Shown here piece after piece: positions 26,281-62,483 of a stretch of DNA of 64,000 nucleotides (the first letter of the stretch is position 1; every line of letters starts with the position of its first letter). The stretch is taken from assembly GCA_030390025.1 (NCBI GenBank), contig CM059432.1:40736001-40800000 (forward strand), in the 5' to 3' direction. Source of the DNA: Squalus acanthias (Eukaryota). The position numbers were made by a program, and so were the translations under genes. The notes under the pieces are model-generated. The model was not told where the DNA came from and ran no database searches. It worked only from the letters and a program-made list of their open reading frames with translations.

Positions 26281-26616
26281 ATTGCACAATACCCAATCTC
26301 GGACAGCCTGTTCCCTGGTTGACTCCTCAACATACTGGTCTAAAAAAATATCTCGTACACACTCCAGGAATTCATCCGCCACAGTATTATTGCTAATTTG
26401 GTTTGGCCAGTCTATATGTAGATTAAAGTCACCCATGATTACTTTAGTACCCTTGTTACATGCATCTCTAATTTCCTGTTTGATGCCATCCCCTACATTA
26501 CCACTACTGTTTGGAGGCCTATAGACAACTCCCACCAATGTTTTCTGCCCCTTGGTGCTTCTTAGCTCCACCCAGACTGATTCTACATCTTCATTTTCTG
26601 AGCCAATATCCTTTCT
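26281..26616 (-). mobile_element. CR1 endonuclease fragment in opposite orientation
   Basis: ESVWVELR...VGVVYRPPNS...MGDFNLHIDW...FLDQYVEESTR. Confidence 0.85.
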
Positions 26617-26712
26617 CACTGGATTGCTCTATAGAGATCCGGCATGGACTCAATGGGCCGAATGGTCTCCTTCTGTGCCGTTATGACTCTATGATCATTG
26701 AAGAGTTGAGTC

Positions 26713-27137
26713 ATAGAGTCATAACGGCACAGAGGAGGCCATTCGGCCCATCGAGTCCGCGCCGGCTCGCTGTAGAACAATCCAGTCAGTCCCATTCCCC
26801 CGCTCTATTTCCGTAGCCCTGCAAGTTTATTTCCCTCAAGTGCCTATCCAGTCTCCCCTTGAAAGATTCAGTGTCTTGCTTCCACCACTTCCGTCGGCAG
26901 CGAGTTCCAGGTCCTCACCACTCGCTGCGGAAAAAAGTTTTTCCTCACATCCCCCCTGTATCTCTTGCCCAAAACCTTAAATCTGTGTCCCCTAGTCCTT
27001 GTACCATCAACTAGTGGGAACAGCCATTCCCCGTTTAGCCTATCCAAACCCGTCATAATCTTGTACACCTCTATCAAATCACCCCTAAACCCCCTTTGCT
27101 CTAATGAAAACAAATCCAGTTTCTCCAACCTGTCCTT
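26713..27137 (-). mobile_element. CR1 LINE 3' fragment
   Basis: LEQRGFRGDLIEVYKIM, TRTRGHRFK, RVVRTWNSLP. Confidence 0.9.
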
Positions 27138-28602: not shown

Positions 28603-29137
28603 TATGAAGAATGCTACCTAAACCAAGGACAAGATGATCTTCTGCAGGGAAAGACCAAAGGTCTGTAAATTTTTTGGCATGTTCATTGTCTTTTTAAGAG
28701 CATTTATTTAATGATTTAAATTCAAGTGTATTACATCTCCAACCCAGAGTGGTTTTATTATTTATGACATATTTATACTTTGTTATTCTATAAATACATG
28801 GCATAAATAATAAAACCACTGTGTGTTGGAGGAGTAATACATTTGAATGTATAATATAGTTCCATGATGAATCAATCACTATAGCCACATTTTCAGTAAA
28901 GACAATTTGAGTGTCCCTACTGCAACTGGCTTGAATCAGTTTTAGTCAGTACAATCCGTAAACAAAATCTGGGACTTTCCACTCTGTCTGACTTGGTAAA
29001 ATGTTGCCTGTACCAACAGTGCCATCAGGGAAGCATGGCTTACATATTTAAAAATAAATAAATATGATTTGTCAATTCATTCCAATGAATAAAAAAACCT
29101 GTACCGTGCCACAGTGTAAATGACGAGTCGGTAAATA

Positions 29138-48049: not shown

Positions 48050-48540
48050 ATCACAATCCCACTGTAGATTACAGTAGGATGAAGGAATCATCACATTCAT
48101 TTGTATAATTTGTTTCCTATGGTCGCAGGACAGTTGCATAATCATACAGTGATAGCTTTTCTGTTCATAAGTGCAATGGTATTGGGAATCGGGGCATGTA
48201 TGGCAGTCAATAATGCCCTGCACTCAGGATTGTCTTTCACGCAGTAGAAGTGGAGGGCTCTTTCATTTTGCTGGCTACTTTCCAAAAGAATTCTCTGGCC
48301 CAGGCAAACATTGCATCAGTGATCTGCATGATGCAAATATGCATTGAAGGTTTGGAGATGTGACAGTGATTTCCTGCGTTTGCTTGGAAAGAGCTTGCCG
48401 TATAAAAGTTCAATTTAGTTGTTTTGTTCACAGCCATTGACGGAGTCATCGCTAGCCAAGAAATGGTTTCCAATTCCGGCTACAGGCATATGTATAGTTC
48501 AATGACAGTGTCCTAATCACAATCTCTGCATGCTCAGGAT
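48050..48540 (-). pseudogene. Decayed Harbinger transposase
   Basis: LNFYTASSFQANAG...IMQITDAMF, QGIIDC and QLSCDHRKQI align with LNFYATGSFQAAAG...IRQVTNALF, QGAIDC and QLVCDHRQLI of the intact transposase. Confidence 0.8.
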
Positions 48541-49979
48541 CGTGGGGTGCACATTTTGGCGAACGTGATGAGGTACACTCACCTTGAACCTCCAACAATG
48601 CCCTCACCAAACTTCACAGGAGCAGAGGGAGGTTGCTTCTTTATCATGGAACTGGTGGGCACCCGTGCCAATAGAGGAACACCCAAGGTGCCTGCCTACA
48701 GAAGAGATTGGAAAGTCTGGCAGAAAGGTGGCCAGCCAGGGGAGGGGTGCTGGGTTCCCTCCCCCCACAACATCTTTAGGTTGTCCTCAATGGCCCCCTT
48801 CGTAAGGGGACCAAAACAAAATACTTTCCTAAAAAAATTGGAACTCCCTTTCTTCAGGGGTCCAGGTTGAGGGAGCAGCCTGGACCCCCAGGTGGGCTCC
48901 ACTTCTCTGGTTAGTGTGTAAATATGCCCGGTACCTCCTCTGACTCTATGCCAGATCCATCTGAAGATGAACATGCGGGATCTCCCAACATAAGGAGTCC
49001 CTGCCCCTGGCCCTGCCCCCTCTTGTTTGGTGCGGGCAGAGGCTCCGTCCCCAACAAACCATCCTGGAATTCCCGATGTAAGGCCAGAACCCAGCACATT
49101 CAGGTCCCAGCCTATTTTCTGGCCTTTCTGGTGCACTCCTGCCATTACCTTGGCAGGAGTGCACTGAAAGGGCCAGAGCCTTTCCCCATCTGAGTGTTTT
49201 ATGACACAAATGCATCTGTCTGGCATTCGTCCTGTGACCCTTCTCCGGAACCACTAAACAGAGATAATCTCAAATAAAAACAGAAAGTGCTGGAAATACT
49301 CAGCAGGTCAGGCAGCATCTGTGGCGCGAAAAACAGAGTTAACATTTCATGCCGATGACTTTTGTCAACAAACCTTTTGTTTTTGTATTAGAGATAATCT
49401 CAAAGTAGCACACAAAGATTATCCTTTGAAAACAGAGATGGATGGCAGATGCAATACAGCTTTGTCCGTAAAACTACAAGATATTTGACACCTTCCTTTC
49501 TCCCACAACAGCAAAATTGTAGAGAAGCAGTAAATCGTAAATAGTTACGCGAAGAAATTCACCTTTCAAAGCAAAGACTCAGCTGAATGCAAGAGGCCTC
49601 CAATCCAGCTGTTTTTTTATATGGGAGTTGAGTGTCTGGAGCGCTTTCAGATGCTCCAAAAGTATTTTGGGGTCCTCCCTTAATTTGCATCAGTATTGCG
49701 GCCTTAATAAGCCTTGAGCAGAAATAGTGCGCAAGCTCCAAGCACCTTGTTTGCTTCTGGGTGGATTATTATAACCGGCATCTCCGCATCATGGATTATT
49801 ATAAACAGTGCACATCAGGAACTTAGAAGGCCTTAGTGCCCCATAATGCAGGGAGTCAGCACCGAATGTGCAATAGTAGAGTGGGCACACACCGCATTAT
49901 TAGCCCAGTGTGTCATGCCATATTAATACAGTCATTCTGACAGAATACAGTATATAGCACAATTCAGATATGTAGAGAG

Positions 49980-50415
49980 AACTTCAGTTATGTGGAAAGA
50001 CTAGAGAAGCTGTGATTGTTTTCCTTATAGTAGAGAAGGTGAAGGGGAGATTTAATAGTGTTGTTCAAAATTATGAGGGGTAAATAAGGAGAAATTGTTT
50101 CCACTGACAGGAGGGTCAGTAACCAGAGGACACAGATTTAAGGTAATTGGCAAAAGAACCAGAGGGGAGCTGAGGAGAAATTTTTTAACGCAGTGAGTTG
50201 TTATGTTCTGGAATGCACTGCCTGAAAAGGTGGTGGAAGCAAATTTAATAATAACTTTCAAAAGGGAATTGGATATATACTTGAAATGGAAAAACCTGCA
50301 CAGCTATGGTGGAAGAGCGAGGGAGTGGGACTAATTGGATAGCTCTTTCTAAGAGATGCACAGGCACAATGGGCCAAATGGCCTCCTTCTGTGCTGTTAA
50401 ATTTTATGACTCTAT
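49980..50415 (+). mobile_element. CR1 3' fragment; target of the Harbinger insertion
   Basis: ACCAGAGGACACAGATTTAAGG, TGGAATGCACTGCCTG, tail ...TATGACTCTAT. Confidence 0.88.
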
Positions 50416-50926
50416 GGGGTAAAAATTCAGTTGGTTGCGCCTCCCGTTAGCGCCTTAAGAGGGCGCTAATGGGGCGCAAAGCCGCTAACGCCCGGGCGCA
50501 GCGATGTTTGCGCCGCTCGGGAACTTAACTAGACATTGTGCGGCGGCGCTAAACTTTACCGCTGCGACCACCTGCGCGTGCAGATTGTGACGTCATTCCA
50601 TGGTGCAACGCCCTTGTGGCACCCCGGAGCGGAAATTGAGTGGCGCCCCCTGCCTTACCGCCTGGCGCATCCAACGACCGGAAGACTGGAACGCTATCAA
50701 TCGCTGTGGGGCTGGGGGGGGCGCTATTTAAAGGAGGCCTCTTCCTGTCTTTTTCTGTGGTGGACATTTTTGCACCACTCGTTCTGAGAGAGAGAGAGAG
50801 ATTCGGAGAGAGAGAAAGAGAGACTTCTGCATTGACTCAACGCTTTGTGAGGTAGTTTTGCCTACTGATCCTAACTTCGCTAGTACTTTAGTTGCTGTCC
50901 TTCATTACTTTGCTTGCAAAGAGACT

Positions 50927-52087
50927 ATGGGGGCTGCACTGATTGGGGGCGTCGTCCTGCTCCAGCTGAATCGGAGGACACAGAGACGCAGAGAGAGAGT
51001 GGCAATGATGGCCAGACGGAGGAGGGCCAACAGGCGTATGTACAGGAGAGCTTACCCTCCCAGGGTATATCGTGAACAGCTCTCCTACCTTCATATGTCT
51101 GAGGAGCTGTGTTTGCGAAGGCTGCGATTCAGCAAGGAGGTGGTCACTGAGCTCTGCCACCTGCTGCAGCCAGATCTGCAGCCTCAACTGAGGTCCAGGA
51201 CGTCTCTGTCGGTGGCAGTGAAGGTCACAGTGGCTCTCAACTTCTACGCTACTGGTTCATTTCAAGCTGCTGCTGGGGACCTCGCCAATATCTCCCAGTT
51301 CGCGGTGCATTGCTGCATCCGGCAGGTCACAAATGCCCTCTTTAAAAGGAGACGAGAGTTCATCTCTTTCCCCATGACCCCAGACAAGCAGCGTGACCGC
51401 GCTCTGGGCTTTGCGAGGGTAGCGGGCTTCCCCATGGTGCAGGGCGCCATTGACTGCATGCATGTGGCTTTGCGTGCTCCGCATGAGAATGCCGAGGAAT
51501 TCCGGAACAGAAAGGGGTTCCATTCCTTGAATGTTCAGTTGGTCTGTGACCACAGACAGCTGATACTCGCTGTCAATGCCCACTATCCTGGCAGCTGCCA
51601 CGATGCTTTTATCCTGCGCCAGACTACTGTGGCAGAACTTTTCGAGGCACCGCATCAGCCAGTTGGTTGGCTTCTCGGGGACAAGGGGTATGCATTGAGC
51701 ACCTGGCTGATGACACCGCTCCGTACGTCCAACACCCCTGCTGAGCTGCGGTACAATGAAAGCCATCAAGCTACCAGGAACATAATTGAGCGCACAATCG
51801 GCGTGCTGAAGCAACGGTTCCGCTGTCTCGACCATTCTGGAGGAGCCCTGCAGTACTCGCCTGAGCGAGTATCCAACTTCGTAGTTGTGTGCTGCATGTT
51901 GCATAACATGGCAATCCTCAGGACCCAGCCAATGCCACCAGGCCTTGGAGCACCACCAGAGGAGGAGGAGGAAGAGGAGGAAGAGGACGAGGAGGATGAT
52001 CATCAGCAGCACCAAGGTGGGAGGGCGGCCCACAATGGTGAAACTGCAAGGGCCGTCCGTCAACGGCTAATAGCAAGCCGCTTCTAG
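50927..52087 (+). CDS. Harbinger (HARBI1-like) DDE transposase, 386 aa
   Basis: GFPMVQGAIDCMH, FRNRKGFHSLNVQLVCD, PGSCHDAFIL, WLLGDKGY, YNESHQATRNIIERTIGVLKQRFRCL, CCMLHN; no stops; TATTTAAA upstream at about 50725. Confidence 0.95.
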   Translation: MGAALIGGVVLLQLNRRTQRRRERVAMMARRRRANRRMYRRAYPPRVYREQLSYLHMSEELCLRRLRFSKEVVTELCHLLQPDLQPQLRSRTSLSVAVKVTVALNFYATGSFQAAAGDLANISQFAVHCCIRQVTNALFKRRREFISFPMTPDKQRDRALGFARVAGFPMVQGAIDCMHVALRAPHENAEEFRNRKGFHSLNVQLVCDHRQLILAVNAHYPGSCHDAFILRQTTVAELFEAPHQPVGWLLGDKGYALSTWLMTPLRTSNTPAELRYNESHQATRNIIERTIGVLKQRFRCLDHSGGALQYSPERVSNFVVVCCMLHNMAILRTQPMPPGLGAPPEEEEEEEEEDEEDDHQQHQGGRAAHNGETARAVRQRLIASRF

Positions 52088-52399
52088 GGCCCCTGCTGTG
52101 GAAATGGCTTCTGCCATTGCTAACAACATCAATGAACCCAGCACGCAACCCCTAAGCCGGCCAAGGCACCAATAATTCCAACCACCAACCATGTATATTT
52201 TGAATACAGAAACTTATTTATTTTACAAACTCTGTGTGTGTCAATTCCTCATGACAAACTCATAGAAATAAACACAAAAAAACAGTCAATAACATAACTG
52301 GTTCTCACAACCTGGAGATAATGTCCAAAACACTAAACAAAAGTTGGACCATGAACCTCGACCTTTAATAAAAAAATGACCAGCATTTTGTCACACCTC

Positions 52400-53376
52400 C
52401 TACTTTTTGCCCTTCGAGGGTGATCTCCTTCCCTTGCGCACTTCCCCCCTTCTAACCCTACTGCTCCTCCGTAATGGGACCTCAGTGGCTGCAGCAAGGC
52501 TGGTGGAAGGCTGCTGCTCGTCAGACCCTGACACTGCAGATGCCCCTGAAGGACGGCCTCGACCAGTTCTGGGCCTGGAGGGCCCGGCTGCAGACTGCAC
52601 CAACTCTGCATGGGCGGCAGCAGTCTGTCCTACAGGCGGTGGCAAGTGCAGTGGAGAAGTGACAGTGTTGGCAGCAGGAATGCTGTCATCGTGAGAGAGG
52701 ACAGCAACTCCCTGCTCGCCCGACACACTGGCACTCCCACGGGGCAGCACTTCAGCATCCGGAGCAATCTGCTGGAGCACAGATTGCTGGCCTGCTGCGG
52801 CGCGGTGACAGCCCCGGGGACATGTGAACGAACCATCGAGGTTGGCAGCAGTCTGTGCTCGCGTGGCCTCAATCTGAGTCTGCATGAGAGCAGTCAGAGA
52901 TGGGATCACGGCAGCCAGTGACTGAATTGCAGCACTAAGCGTTAGTGTGGCATCCGCCTGTGCTACAGCGAAGTGCTCCACACTCCTTGCCAGTGACTCA
53001 ATGCATTCGGGCACCCTTCCCACTGCACCCATGAGCTCAGTGTGCATGCCCACCGCCTGGGTGTTCATTTCTGCGATCAGCCGCTCCTCCTCTGCGTCCA
53101 TTGCAGTAGGAGTGTCTGGCATACTCTCCCTCTGGGGAGAAGGCCCCCGTTCTTCCCTACCCCCATGGCGTTGCTGCAGCCCGCTGGGTCCTGGAGCTTC
53201 ACCCTCATCAGACCCTTCCCCCCTGCTCCCCTCCAGGGAAGGCGTGTTCCCAGTGTGGGCATGGGCTTCCTCGGGAGAGGGTGGCACTGATGCTCCGGCT
53301 TCCTCTTCCTCCTCGGCTGCAGCTTCACTCCCAGTGGCAGCTTCAGGGCCCGTCTCCTCAGCTGGTGAATCACCAT
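52400..53376 (-). CDS. Harbinger Myb/SANT-like protein, exon 3
   Basis: CTCCCTGCTTTCAG acceptor joins in frame to ORF 52400-53287; 237+163+977 = 1377 nt = 458 aa plus stop; basic C-terminus. Confidence 0.82.
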
Positions 53377-53535
53377 CTGAAAGCAGGGAGGTACAAGAGT
53401 GGCTTTAGCGTGAGGACAGGGTGGCAGTAAGGGAGGAATAAGTGCAGCGAGTTAGCAAGTTGGATTGAAAGTGTCAAAGGCTGGTGTTGTGAGGGACAAG
53501 TGGAAGGACAGAGGACAAAAAGATGATGACCTTAC

Positions 53536-53698
53536 CATTGCTGTCCAGAACGGGGTCGGCGTCTCCAGTGGCGACGGGACCGATCACCCGGCTTGCCACA
53601 ATCCTGTGGACGCGCTCCTCAAGATCGCTGAGGGGTTGCAGCTGAGGCCGCCCTCCACCTGTCCGTTGCTGCTGTCTCCGATTATGCGCCAGCTTGGC
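53536..53698 (-). CDS. Harbinger Myb/SANT-like protein, exon 2
   Basis: CTTTTTCTTACAG acceptor; AKLAHNRRQQQRTGGGRPQLQPLSDLEERV...; GTAAG donor (phase 1). Confidence 0.88.
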
Positions 53699-53732
53699 CT
53701 GTAAGAAAAAGGACAGCATCTGAGTAAATATA

Positions 53733-53950
53733 CAGCCATGGTCTTGCCTGATGTGCCTCCCATAGGTGAATAGCCCTTACTGTATGCAGCCATGGTCTTG
53801 CCTGATGTGCCTCCCATAGGTGAATAGCCCTTACTGTATGCAGCCATGGTCTTGCCTGATGTGCCTCCCATAGGTGAATAGCCCTTACTGTATGCAGCCA
53901 TGGTCTTGCCTGATGTGCCTCCCATAGGTGAATAGCCCTTACTGTATGCA
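53733..53950. repeat. Perfect 54-bp tandem repeat x4 in intron 1 of the Myb gene
   Basis: CAGCCATGGTCTTGCCTGATGTGCCTCCCATAGGTGAATAGCCCTTACTGTATG repeated four times. Confidence 0.97.
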
Positions 53951-54090
53951 AAGTGTGGAATGTGTGTGTGTGTTTCATGAAAGGGCCATAGGTGTTGGAT
54001 GAGTGTTGTGCATTGGGGTTTTAAGACCCTCTGGCCATAGAGTGAGGTTGAGATGGAGGGATGGAGAGGTATTGAGAAAAAGCCACTCAC

Positions 54091-54327
54091 CCTGACGACC
54101 CGAGTGAGGTCGTTGAACTTTTTGCGGCATTGAGTATGGGTCCTGGGCACCATGCTCCTGGAGGAGACGCTCTGAGCCACCTCCCTCCACACTCTTCTGT
54201 ACTCGCGTGGCAAAGGCCTCCTGCCACTCTCAGGGAAGAGTATACATCTTCTGCGCTCCACCGCGCCAACCAGAGCATCCAAGGCCCGCTCGGTGAAGCG
54301 ATGAGCTCGTTCTCTCACCCTCTCCAT
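54091..54327 (-). CDS. Harbinger Myb/SANT-like DNA-binding protein, exon 1
   Basis: MERVRERAHRFTERALDALVGAVERRRCILF...WREVAQSVSS...RTHTQCRKKFNDLTRVVR, then GTGAGT donor (phase 0). Confidence 0.9.
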
Positions 54328-55305
54328 CCTTGGCAGCAAAATGGATTCACAGGTCTCTCCAGGTCGAGATTCAAGGCTGCAATGAGCAGGGTGTGGCTGG
54401 GGAGCAAGTTGGCCCCCCCCACTTTAAGAAGTGGCCGGCGCCAGTGTGTCTGTGTTCCCTCGCTAACTGGCAGCAGCTGCGCTGCGCTCGCGCGCTGAGT
54501 TAGCGCCTCACTGCTCGGCCTTTGCGCCTTAAGACAGGTGTGCAGCGCCTGATTTAGCGCTCCACTCACCTCCTGGGGCGGTAAAAGTGAAGTTTCCAGT
54601 CAGTGGCGACAATTAGCGCCAGGCGCTAATATTTGCGTCCAGACGATATTTGCGCCCCAAATGGGGCGCAACCTAATTTTTCCCCCCAATGAGTACACTT
54701 AATTTGTACCAACACTAGGGGTCAGTGGAGAGCTTCATATCGCAAAAGCAAAATATTGCAGATATTGGAAATCTGAAATAAAATCTGTAAATGCTGGAAA
54801 CACTCGGCAGGTAATTTTTTTCTGTTTTGTACCCAGAAGCACTTATTTCCTGGGCATAAAGCAGAGAAAAAAGGGTCAGATATTGTATCTCCATTCCTCT
54901 TCTGTTGCCCCAGGATATCTGAGGGGGGACAAAGTACCTGCAGTCGGTACAGGTTAAGGTTTGCCATGGTAATTAGACTCATTTTTTCTCCTAACCCCAG
55001 AAAGTTGCCCATTTGCGGGGGGCGGGATGGTGGTGGGGGGGGGGGGAGCGGGTGTGGTGCCCAAAAGCAGTGGGCCTCAGGCCCTGTGCTCAGCTTCTTT
55101 CTGATCGGAGGATCAGAGAGGAACAAGCAGCAAAGACCAGCGGAAACAAGGTAAGCCCTTTTACTCTTCCAGGGACATGTATCAGGGCTAGGTGTTTTCT
55201 GACTGTTGTTTTTGGACATCAGCCAGAAGGCCTTGTTGCTCCAGTCCTCCCTTGCTTCCAGGCACAAGGCCTTGCCAGGAGGTGGGACTGTGCTGAGGGA
55301 GTGTC

Positions 55306-55738
55306 TTTTGTTTTATTCGTTCATGGAATGTGGGCATCGCTGGCAAGGCCAGCATTTATTGCCCATCCCTAATTGCCCTTGAGAAGGTGGTGGTGAGCCG
55401 CCTTCTTGAACCGCTGCAGTCCGTGTGGTGAAGGTACTCCCACAGTGCTGTTAGGGAGGGAGTTCCAGGATTTTGACCCAGCGATGATGAAGGAACGACG
55501 ATATACTTCTAAGTCAGGATGGTGTGTGACATGGAGGGGAACTTGGAGGTGGTGGTGTTCCCACATGCCTAGTGCCCTTGTCCTTCTAGGTGGCAGAGGT
55601 CGCGGGTTTGGTAGGTGCTGCCGAAGAAGCCGTGGCGAGTTGCTGCAGTGCATCTTGTAGATGGTGCACACTGCAGTCACGGTGCGCCGGTGGTGGAGGG
55701 AGTGAATGTTTAAGGTGGTGGATGGGGTGCCAATCAAG
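55306..55738 (-). mobile_element. LINE 3' end of a third family (clade not assigned)
   Basis: LNIHSLHHRRTVTAVCTIYKM...SFIIAGSKSWNSLP...FKKAAHHHL, a typical non-LTR ORF2 C-terminus, with an A-rich tail. Confidence 0.75.
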
Positions 55739-55869
55739 TTTGACTTATGTAAGTAACCTGAACCTGGCAATATAGGCAGGTTCATATCATTGTAGGTGGA
55801 GTGTACTTTGGGTGGATAAGAGACAGGAATATTGGCCATAGAGTTTTAAAAACATCTGGTGTTACCTTC

Positions 55870-56250
55870 TGCACATTCACAGGATTACAAGGTAAAAATG
55901 GATGATCAAGAACATTCAGCCCAGTTTAACTCATCCTTCCAGAAAGATCCTACAACACCCCTTGCCCTATTACAGTATCCAATTGATTCTTAAACTATTC
56001 CAGCTGTTTTTACCTCCAGTACCTGACCCAGAAGTCCATTTAATTTGTTGATGTCTGTGTGAAGAAAAACTTCCTGACATCAGTCCTAACTACCTTTTGC
56101 TAGTTTAAACCTGTCGCCCCTTGACCTACTCTCAGGGATAGTTCGAAGTGATTTTCCGGAACTATCTTTACAATATAATTTACGATCTGATATCGGTCAC
56201 ATCTGAGTCACCTCCTGTCAAGGCTGGGATGCCCACGTTTCTCTAGAGTT
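55870..56250 (-). mobile_element. Highly decayed CR1 3' fragment
   Basis: TGTGTGAAGAAAAACTTCCTG, TTTAAACCTGTCGCCCCTTG resemble the reverse-complement CR1 3' region. Confidence 0.55.
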
Positions 56251-59315: not shown

Positions 59316-59896
59316 GGCCTAGAAATTGGATTGCACCCAAATTAGAGTACCAATGTATTGCCTTCATGCACGAACTTTAGTCACATGAGTTAACGGATGG
59401 TTGCCACAAAACACTGGTGACAGCATTTGTGCAAAATATTTGCTATATAAATGCTGTTCATAATTTTTTAAATATCTACTAAATCTCTTAGCTTTTCTGC
59501 ACACACCTAATGAGGCCAGCAGCAGGACCATGCCAAATTGTTTCTCAGCCTCATTACTATAGCACCAGTGTGGTGGGGGCACCAGTCGGGGCTCCTGCTC
59601 CTCCCAGCTCCATATTTAGGAAAAGTATTTTTTTTTAAACGTACCTTTTTTGGTGGCGGCCTTCAGGGGTCCATCGCCTTCTGAATTCAGGGCAAACCAA
59701 TTTCTGGTTCGGGTCCTAAAACAGGCGTTTTGCCCCTTATTAGCATATTCAAGGTGCTGGACACCAGCCGCCAGGGCTGTCTCTACAGAACCTGATCCAA
59801 TATGGCATTGGATGTTTTTCTGGCCCCTTAAATTGGCCCCCTTTGCACTCGTTTTCCGCATGGTAAACAGGTGGAACAAGGTCCAATTTCACCCCC
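59316..59896. mobile_element. Harbinger-type MITE with AAT TSD
   Basis: AAT|GGCCTAGAAATTGG...CCAATTTCACCCCC|AAT. Confidence 0.65.
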
Positions 59897-60609
59897 AATG
59901 TGTCTGACAAAATGATCACCTTGAGGAGAAAGAGAAAAAGTTGAAGCAGTAAAAGAGAGCTGCAGCTAAAGAAACAGAAAATACTGGATCCACATCAACA
60001 ACTTTAAATTCTGCATTATTTACTGAAAGAATGTGTACCCTATGGTTGGCATATATTCTTCGGTATTCTTCCAGTCTTTAGTGTTGACCAATTACTTCAG
60101 GACATTTCAGTCCATTAACTCGGATAAATTAAAGAGATAAAAACAGGTTAAGATTCTTTATTTTAGTGAATGTACAGCAGAGCTCTTCAACATGTAAATA
60201 TAATGGTGATGATAGTAGTAGAGAGGACCACCCATCGTATGTCTGAGGGAGATGTATTTGGGTATGGGCTTGGTGCAGATATCCAACAAGAAGGAACCAA
60301 CAGATAACTAACTATCTGTATTCCAAAAACAGCATTTAGGCTGGTGAAAAAACAAAACAAACAAAAAAAACTATGCAGAAAGGAAAGGCGTTACCTTTCC
60401 CACCCTGTGTTAATTGCTATGTTTGCAGGGAAAGTGTAGTTTTATTACCCGCACCAAGTCAGTTTACTCCTTCTATTGCTTTTCGCAGATTGTTGTCACT
60501 GTGATTATACCTGCCAGTGTGAGAAGGAAATATTGGGCTTGAGTTTTCCATCCCCTCGTCCAACAAGCATAGTTTGATTTAATTCTTGGAAATGAAGTAG
60601 GATAAATAA

Positions 60610-61238
60610 GCCACGTTGGAGGCCCTGGTGCAGGCGGTGAACAGGAGGAGGGAAATCCTGTTCCTCCCCAGGGGGCAGAAAGCCCTCCAGGCAACTCCTC
60701 CACCACCAGTGGGAAGAGGTTGCAGATGAGGTCAATGCCAGGAGCTTAGCTCCTAAGATGTGGCTGCAAACCCAAAAGAAGTTCAGTGACCTCACCAGAG
60801 TTATCAAGGTTAGAATACTGCTCTCTTATTCTCTGCTGACACCTCCAGCCTCATTCCTCACAATACTCCCCATCCCCCACTTCCCTTCATGTTCCTACAA
60901 TCACTGCACCACACTCCATTACACCACCTTCTCCTCATACTCACACACTCTCCACTATTCAAATCCTCACTTTACCACAACTGACATCTTACACACTACA
61001 TACCAACTACTCAACCATGACAAGCACATTCTCTAAACACCTCACAAGACTGTGACTAACATACTCCCTTCTTTCTTGCAGGAGAAAGTCGTGCATAACT
61101 TGAGACAGGAGGCTACCACTGGAGGAGGCCGAGCCAGCCAGCACACCCTCTCCCCATGTGGAAAAATCATGCTGGCCATCATGGGCAGGGGGAGAGTCAT
61201 GGCCGTTGTGAGTGGAAATGCTGGAGGAGACGTCAGGC
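60610..61238 (+). pseudogene. Decayed Harbinger Myb/SANT gene (exon 1 remnant 60610-60808 with a frameshift, exon 2 from 61082)
   Basis: LEALVQAVNRRREILF...WEEVADEVNARS...KKFSDLTRVIK|GT...CAG|EKVVHNLRQEATTGGG; same intron position as the intact gene. Confidence 0.82.
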
Positions 61239-62483
61239 TGTGAAGGAATAAGCCATATTCAGAAAAATACACCATTCTATGAAAGAATTCTGGCCTTTGT
61301 AACATGACAAACTGGGCTTGAAAATCTAAAAGCCTCAACAATCTAAAGCTGTAAGCAGCATACAGGCTATTGAGATAAGATAAGTTGTTGACACTGAATC
61401 AATAACCGTATTGAAACAGGAGGTTGGAAGCTCCTGAAGTCTGAAGCTTTGGAAAGAACACAATGGTACACCCTGTTAAGGTGTCTTAAATTACACTTTG
61501 GAAAGAAACACAGAAAATTAAGAAACATTTGCCTTCGTAAAAATGACATCAAATGAAACACAGGAGACATGATTCTGTGTTGCAACCAGCTGAGGTAACT
61601 AAGAAGACCCGGTTGAGGTGTTATTAATTTACACGTCGTTAAAAAGACACAAACAGAAGACCTTGGTAAGAATGACATCAAATAGATGCATCTGCTGTCA
61701 CACCGTTTTTATGATAAGCTTCGAACACCTAAAGGTAGAGACACAATTCTTAATGCTACCAGCTGAACTGACTGTAAGAATAGCAGGGGTCAGCAGAAAA
61801 ATGACTAGAGATAATTAGTTTACATCAGCAGAAAACTTCAAAGGAAATACCACTGAGAAAGGATATAAATATTGAACTTTCAAATGGGATGATAGTCTCA
61901 CTGTAAAGCGGCAAAGCGATTCTCAGGCTTCAGAGGCAAGCTCTGTAAGTCTATAACTCTTTGTACCTCAGGGATCAAAGTATTGTACTGTATTTGATTT
62001 TGGTGGATATCCTGGAATAAAGACTAAGAAATGTAAAAATGTAACGAAGTTAAGATTTGAGAATAAGGATCTCTGATAATAGAATTGTAAGATTTCTGCT
62101 TTTGGAACTGTTAATGTTGCGATTGAATCTCCAACTGTAATTATATGTCGGTTCTTTAATAAATCTATATATTTTTAGAATTGTCTCACATAATACTTCT
62201 GTATCAAACTTGCAAACTCAATCTCTGTACACTCTTTGGTGAGGAGTTGCAGAATTCTGAGGGAGTTTTCCAGACCCTCATAATATCCGGAACGTTACAG
62301 TCTAGCTAAACTTATTAAAAGTGCTATCTGGAGGACAGTAACATCTTCAGGTTGTTCCTTTCCTTTAGGGAGAGATAGTCTGGACCTTTAGACCCAATTA
62401 AGCGTCTTTAGGATTCAGCTACCTCAAACTTTAGTTGAAAGTGAACGTCTGGGGAATACGCCTGATCCGGGGTAGCCCTAACG
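61239..62483. mobile_element. Possible solo LTR
   Basis: Begins TGTGAAGG, ends ...CCTAACG, flanks AGGC and GGGC, internal AATAAA; abruptly interrupts the Myb relic. Confidence 0.4.

Follow-up and report, generated by a model that had tools for sequence, protein, structure and literature searches.

Where both genes of a transposon can still be read from end to end, it may be asked whether the element still moves. The question is posed by a Harbinger-type transposon of 4.27 kb, at positions 50416 to 54687 of a 64,000-nucleotide (nt) stretch of the Squalus acanthias genome (GenBank assembly GCA_030390025.1, contig CM059432.1, 40,736,001 to 40,800,000). This stretch is termed the window, and all coordinates refer to it. 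An original prediction, made from the sequence, described the element as an apparently intact two-gene system and a candidate for active cut-and-paste transposition in a vertebrate. The first part stands: the element is full-length with both frames open, and it belongs to an abundant family of fair homogeneity. The second is unsupported. This copy probably landed long ago and is now, in all likelihood, a slowly decaying passenger that is not currently mobile.

The two genes and the termini

The transposase gene (50927..52087, plus strand) runs uninterrupted from an ATG at 50927 to a stop codon at 52087 and encodes 386 amino acids (aa). The protein matches the Pfam family DDE_Tnp_4 (PF13359) with an E value of 5.5e-39. 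The motifs IDC (at residue 175), GDKGY (251) and IER (287) hold the catalytic residues D176, D252 and E288; D226 is a further acidic residue. The stop-free frame and its three motifs had been predicted, and open reading frame (ORF), Pfam match and alignment bear them out. Among 120 aligned homologs, the three residues are also those of the majority (D176 in 95 of 116, D252 in 91 of 114 and E288 in 77 of 117). The methionine that turns IDCTH into IDCMH is verified as well; it is found in 19 of 115 homologs, with threonine in 79. Residue S268 occupies a position where 86 of 113 homologs carry proline. Sharks and rays supply 115 of the 120 best homologs, the top identity being 66%.

An AlphaFold2 model of the transposase, based on a 50-sequence alignment, has a mean predicted local distance difference test score of 88.5. 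The folds nearest to the model are those of the piggyBac, Tn5, Tn4430 and ISCth4 transposases (Z 9.4–8.4; root-mean-square deviation 4.7–5.8 over 207–242 aligned residues), and the fold class of the modelled protein is that of a DDE transposase. A Foldseek search with the model gave nothing at E<=0.001, the best match being piggyBac at E 0.016. A sequence search of the Protein Data Bank returned four weak, unrelated matches and no solved relative.

The second gene lies on the minus strand, convergent with the transposase gene, and has a Myb/SANT-like product. Three exons join in frame to give 458 aa. Exon 1 (54091..54327) carries the Myb/SANT-like domain (Pfam PF13873, Myb_DNA-bind_5, E 8.1e-10); exon 2 (53536..53698) aligns with the shark protein P0007 (56% over 34 aa, E 4e-7); exon 3 (52400..53376) comprises an acidic stretch, a helical middle and a basic C-terminus. 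Intron 1 (53699..54090, 392 nt) and intron 2 (53377..53535, 159 nt), both also on the minus strand, have GT..AG borders. The exon 1–2 junction is independently supported, because P0007 spans exon 1 (residues 8–82) straight into exon 2 (residues 83–116) and because a decayed Myb relic at 60604–61250 has an intron at the same position. Exon 1 is also matched at 50% by the Narcine protein P0122, and among longer proteins 1 of 181 matched it. A search for homologs of exon 3 gave no match among 8000 candidates, and exon 3 is known as an open frame only. The predicted three-exon gene is accordingly upheld in its frame, its splice sites and its first junction, but in its third exon only as an open frame. 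Within intron 1, at about 53729–53950, is a 54-bp tandem repeat of about four copies, 99–100% alike, which is a recent local expansion.

The element is bounded by imperfect terminal inverted repeats (TIRs). The left TIR (50416..50441, plus strand, 26 nt) starts with GGGG, and the right TIR (54665..54687, minus strand) has 23 nt; terminal comparison shows a 4-nt gap, offset by one additional G. Both TIRs and the indel between them had been noticed before. Among 1277 bins of the window, the two ends are each other's best match; the right end scores 32.5 against the left, with a runner-up of 27.5. Outside the TIRs, the left half of a target palindrome, ACTC, and the triplet TAT (50409..50415) face the triplet AAT and the right half, GAGT (54688..54694). 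In this target, ACTC[TAT]...[AAT]GAGT, the 4-bp palindrome is perfect, and the triplets of the target site duplication (TSD) agree at two of three bases, the imperfection that had been foreseen. Alternative ends at 50417–54688, with a perfect ATG/ATG duplication, were rejected: the ends become asymmetric and the ACTC/GAGT palindrome is broken.

Next to both termini are arrays of the motif TWGCGCC, on both strands, six copies at the left end (50435..50552) and six at the right (54501..54672), with none in the 3699-nt middle. They are predicted binding sites of the Myb protein. The motif was chosen by eye; the count of its 6-mer core observed at either end was matched in none of 2000 dinucleotide shuffles. 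The observed/expected ratio of CpG is 1.08 and 0.95 at the termini and 0.43–0.83 in the body, with 0.56 in the transposase gene and 0.43 in exon 3. The flanks have ratios of 0.41 and 0.31, and 7 of 41 flank bins reach at least 0.55. High CpG retention, as claimed earlier, is thus a property of the termini but not of the transposase gene or of exon 3. Rfam gave no matches across 49000–56000, and a search of metagenome contigs for the left-end pattern gave none.

Three further signals are putative. The TATA-like box that had been predicted upstream of the transposase gene is present as TATTTAA (50725..50731, plus strand). A candidate 5′-leader intron (50847..50921, plus strand) has a GT donor at 50847 or 50852, a CTAAC branch-like site and an AG acceptor that abuts the ATG; the public sequencing run X10, discussed below, passes through it unspliced. 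The polyA signals of the earlier description are found in the convergent 3′ region (52217..52372), as AATAAA at 52267 and 52367 on the plus strand and a polyA-type hexamer at 52217–52222 on the minus strand.

By analogy with Harbinger3_DR and Ping, the Myb/SANT protein would bind the TWGCGCC arrays at both ends and would then bring the transposase into the nucleus and position it. The transposase, with its RNase H-type DDE fold, would excise the element, and reinsertion would take place at a palindromic A-N-N-Y[3 bp]R-N-N-T site, of which the three central bases are duplicated. The target of the present copy fits this pattern.

Abundance of the family and age of this copy

Twenty-three public runs are listed for sampled words of the element, none of them on record as RNA. 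At least half of the words occur in 18 of the 23, which represent seven organism codes and one unlabelled run. Word shares are 0.85–0.89 in deep runs of organism A and 0.60–0.62 in thin runs, corresponding to divergences per base of 0.4–0.5% and about 1.5%, respectively. Four runs (X2, X10, X16 and X21) were aligned to 49000–53720 at 90% likeness.

In X2, which is of organism A, the unique left flank is represented by single contigs (3 differences in 700 nt) of depths 8.6 and 10.1, a match that marks organism A as the host species or one very close to it. Over the body of the element, the summed depth has a median of 6.65e5. The ratio of element to flank is 3–7e4 raw and about 1,100–2,100 after division by 31, the highest factor by which short, overlapping contigs inflate the k-mer count; as summed depth does not count copies, it gives an order of magnitude only. 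The family is likely very high-copy, with a thousand copies or more as a rough figure, and its interspersed, multi-copy nature is seen in the 103,677 X2 contigs that align, flank repeats included. Many X2 sites vary at intermediate frequency, chiefly at the left end. Coding effects were entered for 25 of the 40 variant rows displayed, 13 of them in the transposase gene, leaving aside rows in the flank and leader and two sites, 51133 and 51166, that come almost exclusively from X21. Eight of the ten displayed transposase sites of intermediate frequency in X2 are synonymous, a pattern that would be expected from sublineages selected for transposition, albeit in a small sample (40 of 204 rows).

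Three X2 contigs join the left end of the element to sequence like 49774–49793. These joints, at about 49793/50416, represent further copies of the element that landed behind the end of another repeat; the left junction of the present copy is bridged by no displayed contig. X21, raw reads of organism I, has 253 aligned reads, 244 of them at 90–95% and mostly in a GA microsatellite; another 10 or so reads, near 51130–51190, come from a diverged relative.

Organisms A to G hold 60–89% of the element's words, which might speak for a recent spread between species by horizontal transfer. This is very improbable. In X16, of organism G, the one aligned run from organisms B to G, the depth of the element is only about 38 and the unique flank is missing. 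The X16/X2 ratios are also alike, 4.7–14e-5 for the long and short interspersed nuclear element (LINE/SINE) repeats of the flank and 6.8e-5 for the element, and every close protein relative comes from sharks and rays. The view that organism G carries the element was rejected, since the X16 pattern is likely that of trace organism-A-like DNA. Two runs of one study with organism code D, X9 and X23, have word shares of 0.64 and 0.00; this contrast fits carried-over DNA better than a genuine occurrence in organism D.

At six displayed sites, 92% or more of the aligned depth has a base other than that of the present copy. At 51089, 51256 and 51728 the other base makes up 99.2%, 99.85% and 99.7% of that depth, and two of these three sites alter the protein, at L55 and at S268 (51728). 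The highest-depth contigs differ from this copy at 5/1392 (X16) and 6/806 (X10) positions in the 3′ part, and at 18/511 (X16) and 10/451 (X10) on the left. The commonest family path is accordingly 2–3.5% away over the left 850 bp (50416–51270) and 0.4–0.7% away over 51300–53620. This sequence contrast suggests subfamily mosaicism or recombination between copies. Lower-depth variant paths are excluded from these figures, two of eight in X16 (12/177 and 16/180) and two of eight in X10 (10/195 and 13/177); with all eight displayed pieces, the divergence is 51/2260 (2.3%) in X16 and 39/1629 (2.4%) in X10.

At divergences of 0.4, 0.7 and 1.5%, the chance that both frames are free of stops is 0.73, 0.57 and 0.30; with an assumed indel rate, it is 0.36–0.17 at 0.4–0.7%. 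Since stop-free frames arise by chance at 0.4–0.7%, intactness needs no selection, and the frames have presumably stayed open through the fewness of accumulated changes and not through preservation by the host. For the epaulette shark, 7e-10 mutations per base and generation are reported (PMC10587355). At this rate 0.4% corresponds to about 5 million generations, and to about 0.5 million if a tenfold, CpG-like rate is assumed. The age would be a maximum, since some of the changes that separate the copy from the majority will have come from the copy that gave rise to it. A caution follows for slowly mutating sharks: a copy with open frames and an identity of about 99.5% need not have been active recently.

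X10, of organism A and RNA by guess only, covers the termini and intron 2. The contig through intron 2 has a depth of 409, and those of exon 3 have depths of 351 and 451; among the 15 of 130 joints displayed, there is no spliced joint at intron 2. Compared with X2, X10 contains about 30-fold less of the element when both runs are scaled to the LINE/SINE repeats of the flank. The term 'active' is therefore unsupported for this copy, because of near-private changes that include S268, a mismatched TSD, frames that are open by chance in 57–73% of cases and an unspliced intron 2 in X10.

Several points weigh against the reading of the copy as an immobile passenger. All three catalytic residues are kept, and the transposase is off the majority at just 7 of the 139 columns conserved at 70% or more among the 120 homologs. 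Of the X2 contigs, 14,599 of 103,677 (flank repeats included) are at least 99% alike, and very young copies may for this reason exist. How far a copy lies from the majority path does not tell when it was inserted; a live minor subfamily would give the same picture, and contigs lose rare variants. The variants displayed from the runs are those of 40 out of 204 rows and the joints 15 out of 130, with 24 out of 1405 loose ends and 24 out of about 101,000 pieces, and the aligned range, 49000–53720, stops short of exon 1 and the right end. The X10 contig through intron 2 also begins at 53348, precisely where a branch from the spliced form would begin, a weak hint, noticed post hoc, of some spliced RNA.

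It may accordingly be considered that the copy belongs to a minor, still-transposing subfamily and is itself competent, its private differences being the markers of that subfamily. Open frames, an intact triad and intact splice sites would fit this, as would the subfamily structure indicated by the intermediate-frequency variants concentrated at the left end. The shape of the left TIR appears to be family-wide as well, there being no deletion at 50425–50435 among five indel rows, and the splice-branch hint of X10 points weakly in the same direction. The bases of this copy at 51256 and 51728, however, are found in only 0.15–0.3% of the aligned depth; the TSD is mismatched and S268 stands at a conserved proline. 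In X10, if it is RNA, intron 2 is as deep as exon 3, and the element is depleted relative to X2. A live minor subfamily is therefore a rather improbable explanation, and a decaying passenger remains the preferred one. For the family as a whole, it is somewhat less doubtful, but still unlikely, that transposition continues in the shark germ line from native, unreconstructed two-gene masters, be it this copy or nearly identical sisters, with a target defined by its flanks, A-N-N-Y[any 3 bp]R-N-N-T.

Neighbouring relics and shark and ray relatives

The landing site of the element is an old LINE-like 3′ fragment (49975..50415, plus strand) with a (ATGACTCT)-type tail. The fragment is 69–78% like other repeats of the window, has stops in all three frames and is of high depth in public contigs; it is presumably of the CR1 type.

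Other Harbinger-type sequences are found nearby. A non-coding element of 581 bp (59316–59896) has G-rich/GAAATTGG ends that agree at 10 of 14 positions; the AAT/AAT duplication around it is perfect and bordered by C and G. This small element fits three of the four positions of A-N-N-Y[TSD]R-N-N-T and is likely a non-autonomous Harbinger-type element. A transposase relic at 48077–48512 (minus strand) has 38–43% identity, with stops and frameshifts. This relic and the decayed Myb gene at 60604–61250 (plus strand), which has the position of its first intron in common with the Myb partner, belong to other Harbinger families. Two near-palindromes, at 26615–26789 and 28717–28851, are about 80–83% self-complementary by self-BLAST and possibly resemble miniature inverted-repeat transposable elements.

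Shark and ray databases also contain conserved transposase-derived proteins. A tree built by a quick method from the window transposase and 49 of the 120 homologs, with neither a true HARBI1 nor an outgroup, gives the window transposase no strongly supported place. Five short-branch clades span shark and ray genera at 61–90% identity, and most of the proteins have lost at least one catalytic residue. They comprise P0022, P0023 and P0063; P0040 and P0041; P0011 and P0013; P0004 and P0005; and P0006, P0012, P0014, P0015, P0017, P0021 and P0093. The seven-member clade, of both sharks and rays, keeps the catalytic E in none of the seven proteins and the second D in one. One clade consists of Pristis, Scyliorhinus and Chiloscyllium proteins at 87.5–90.4% identity. 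All proteins of the five clades are named 'putative nuclease HARBI1' in the databases. Judged from their sequences, the clades are candidates for elasmobranch-specific domesticated transposase genes; a literature search found no paper on these proteins.

With such proteins at hand, and with both frames open, the two genes might themselves be thought to have been co-domesticated at this locus, as a pair like HARBI1 and NAIF1. This has next to no likelihood. A domesticated gene is marked by a single copy, the lack of transposon ends and a conserved ortholog, and none of these is found. TIRs, subterminal motifs and TSD are kept, the copy number is very high, and the transposase lies outside all five clades, with a best match of 66%. 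The element is not domesticated.

Relation to known Harbinger systems

With a DDE_Tnp_4 triad, a separate Myb/SANT ORF and short TIRs that start with G, the element is a full-length member of the known two-gene Harbinger-type (PHIS) elements. Of the 3-bp duplication that is usual for these, two of three bases agree here (TAT/AAT), and the small relative at 59316–59896 has AAT/AAT. The subgroups defined in PMC4482050 fit less well. The TWA duplication of the narrow-sense PIF/Harbinger elements is not that of TAT/AAT, at one site. The GGG start and the size fit NuwaI, but its CWG duplication is absent. The C|TNA|G target of NuwaII is found as to the flanking C and G, but the triplet is not TNA. 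AAT would fit the ANT of Pangu, but Pangu has a second ORF with no known motif, and the second ORF here has a Myb domain. On two sites only, the TSD is outside the TWA, CWG and TNA classes of that paper.

NuwaI and NuwaII, compared by their described features (PMC4482050), otherwise resemble the element. They have a DDE ORF and a Myb/SANT ORF, TIRs of 12–61 bp that start with GG(G), and mean lengths of 4.46 and 4.69 kb against the 4.27 kb found here; NuwaII also has C before and G after the triplet. The difference lies in the TSD, which at both sites here departs from CWG as well as from TNA.

The models termed 'putative nuclease HARBI1' in shark and ray entries of RefSeq and UniRef have 45–66% identity to the transposase and the same motifs. 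D, D and E are kept in 51 of the 108 that cover the triad, and many resemble decayed copies. None of them is this protein, and the database name does not signify orthology to HARBI1. HARBI1, NAIF1 and MSANTD1–4 derive from the same two kinds of gene but are single, syntenic host genes, whereas the element is TIR-flanked and multi-copy (PMC9392472).

The original prediction held that vertebrate copies are usually decayed or domesticated, which is too strong as a general statement. The sea krait L. colubrina has 269 intact Harbinger copies (PMC8437027), families with two intact ORFs number 88 + 11 + 22 across eukaryotes (PMC4482050), Harbinger expression is reported for teleosts (PMC9179366) and a recent expansion for a newt (PMC5741667). 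As to cartilaginous fish, no Harbinger is reported in the elephant shark, with a check of other species urged (PMC9179366), and Harbingers are listed in passing for the whale shark and the grey reef shark (PMC8455134, PMC12498223). A sequence-level description of an autonomous elasmobranch family was not found in a literature search whose scope did not extend to most subscription journals, supplements, Repbase and Dfam; the last two may already include this family. The element offers a reference for the full-length anatomy of an abundant Harbinger family of elasmobranchs.

Harbinger-Snek of sea kraits (PMC8437027) is likewise a high-copy vertebrate Harbinger with intact two-gene copies, and its expansion has slowed, as in the family of the element. 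Harbinger-Snek, however, arrived horizontally and has RNA over both ORFs, whereas the close relatives of the element are from sharks and rays only.

Of the systems with known activity, Ping and Pong were described in 2010 as the sole naturally active members then known (PMC2836001), and vertebrate Harbinger activity in the cited papers is that of the reconstructed zebrafish element Harbinger3_DR (Sinzelle 2008, as cited in PMC3016246, PMC2836001 and PMC9392472). Harbinger3_DR also has a DDE transposase gene and a Myb-like partner gene. Its target, AAACAC-CWG-GTCTTT, shares A(-4), C(-1), G(+1) and T(+4) with ACTC[TAT/AAT]GAGT. The two differ, in a comparison by description only, in the central triplet, CWG against TAT/AAT, and in that the shark element is a native copy. 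Should native copies be active, studies of mechanism and the development of tools would gain a vertebrate transposon of two components whose target can be predicted. If such activity takes place in the germ line, it would be that of a naturally active vertebrate Harbinger with a target outside the TWA/CWG/TNA scheme.

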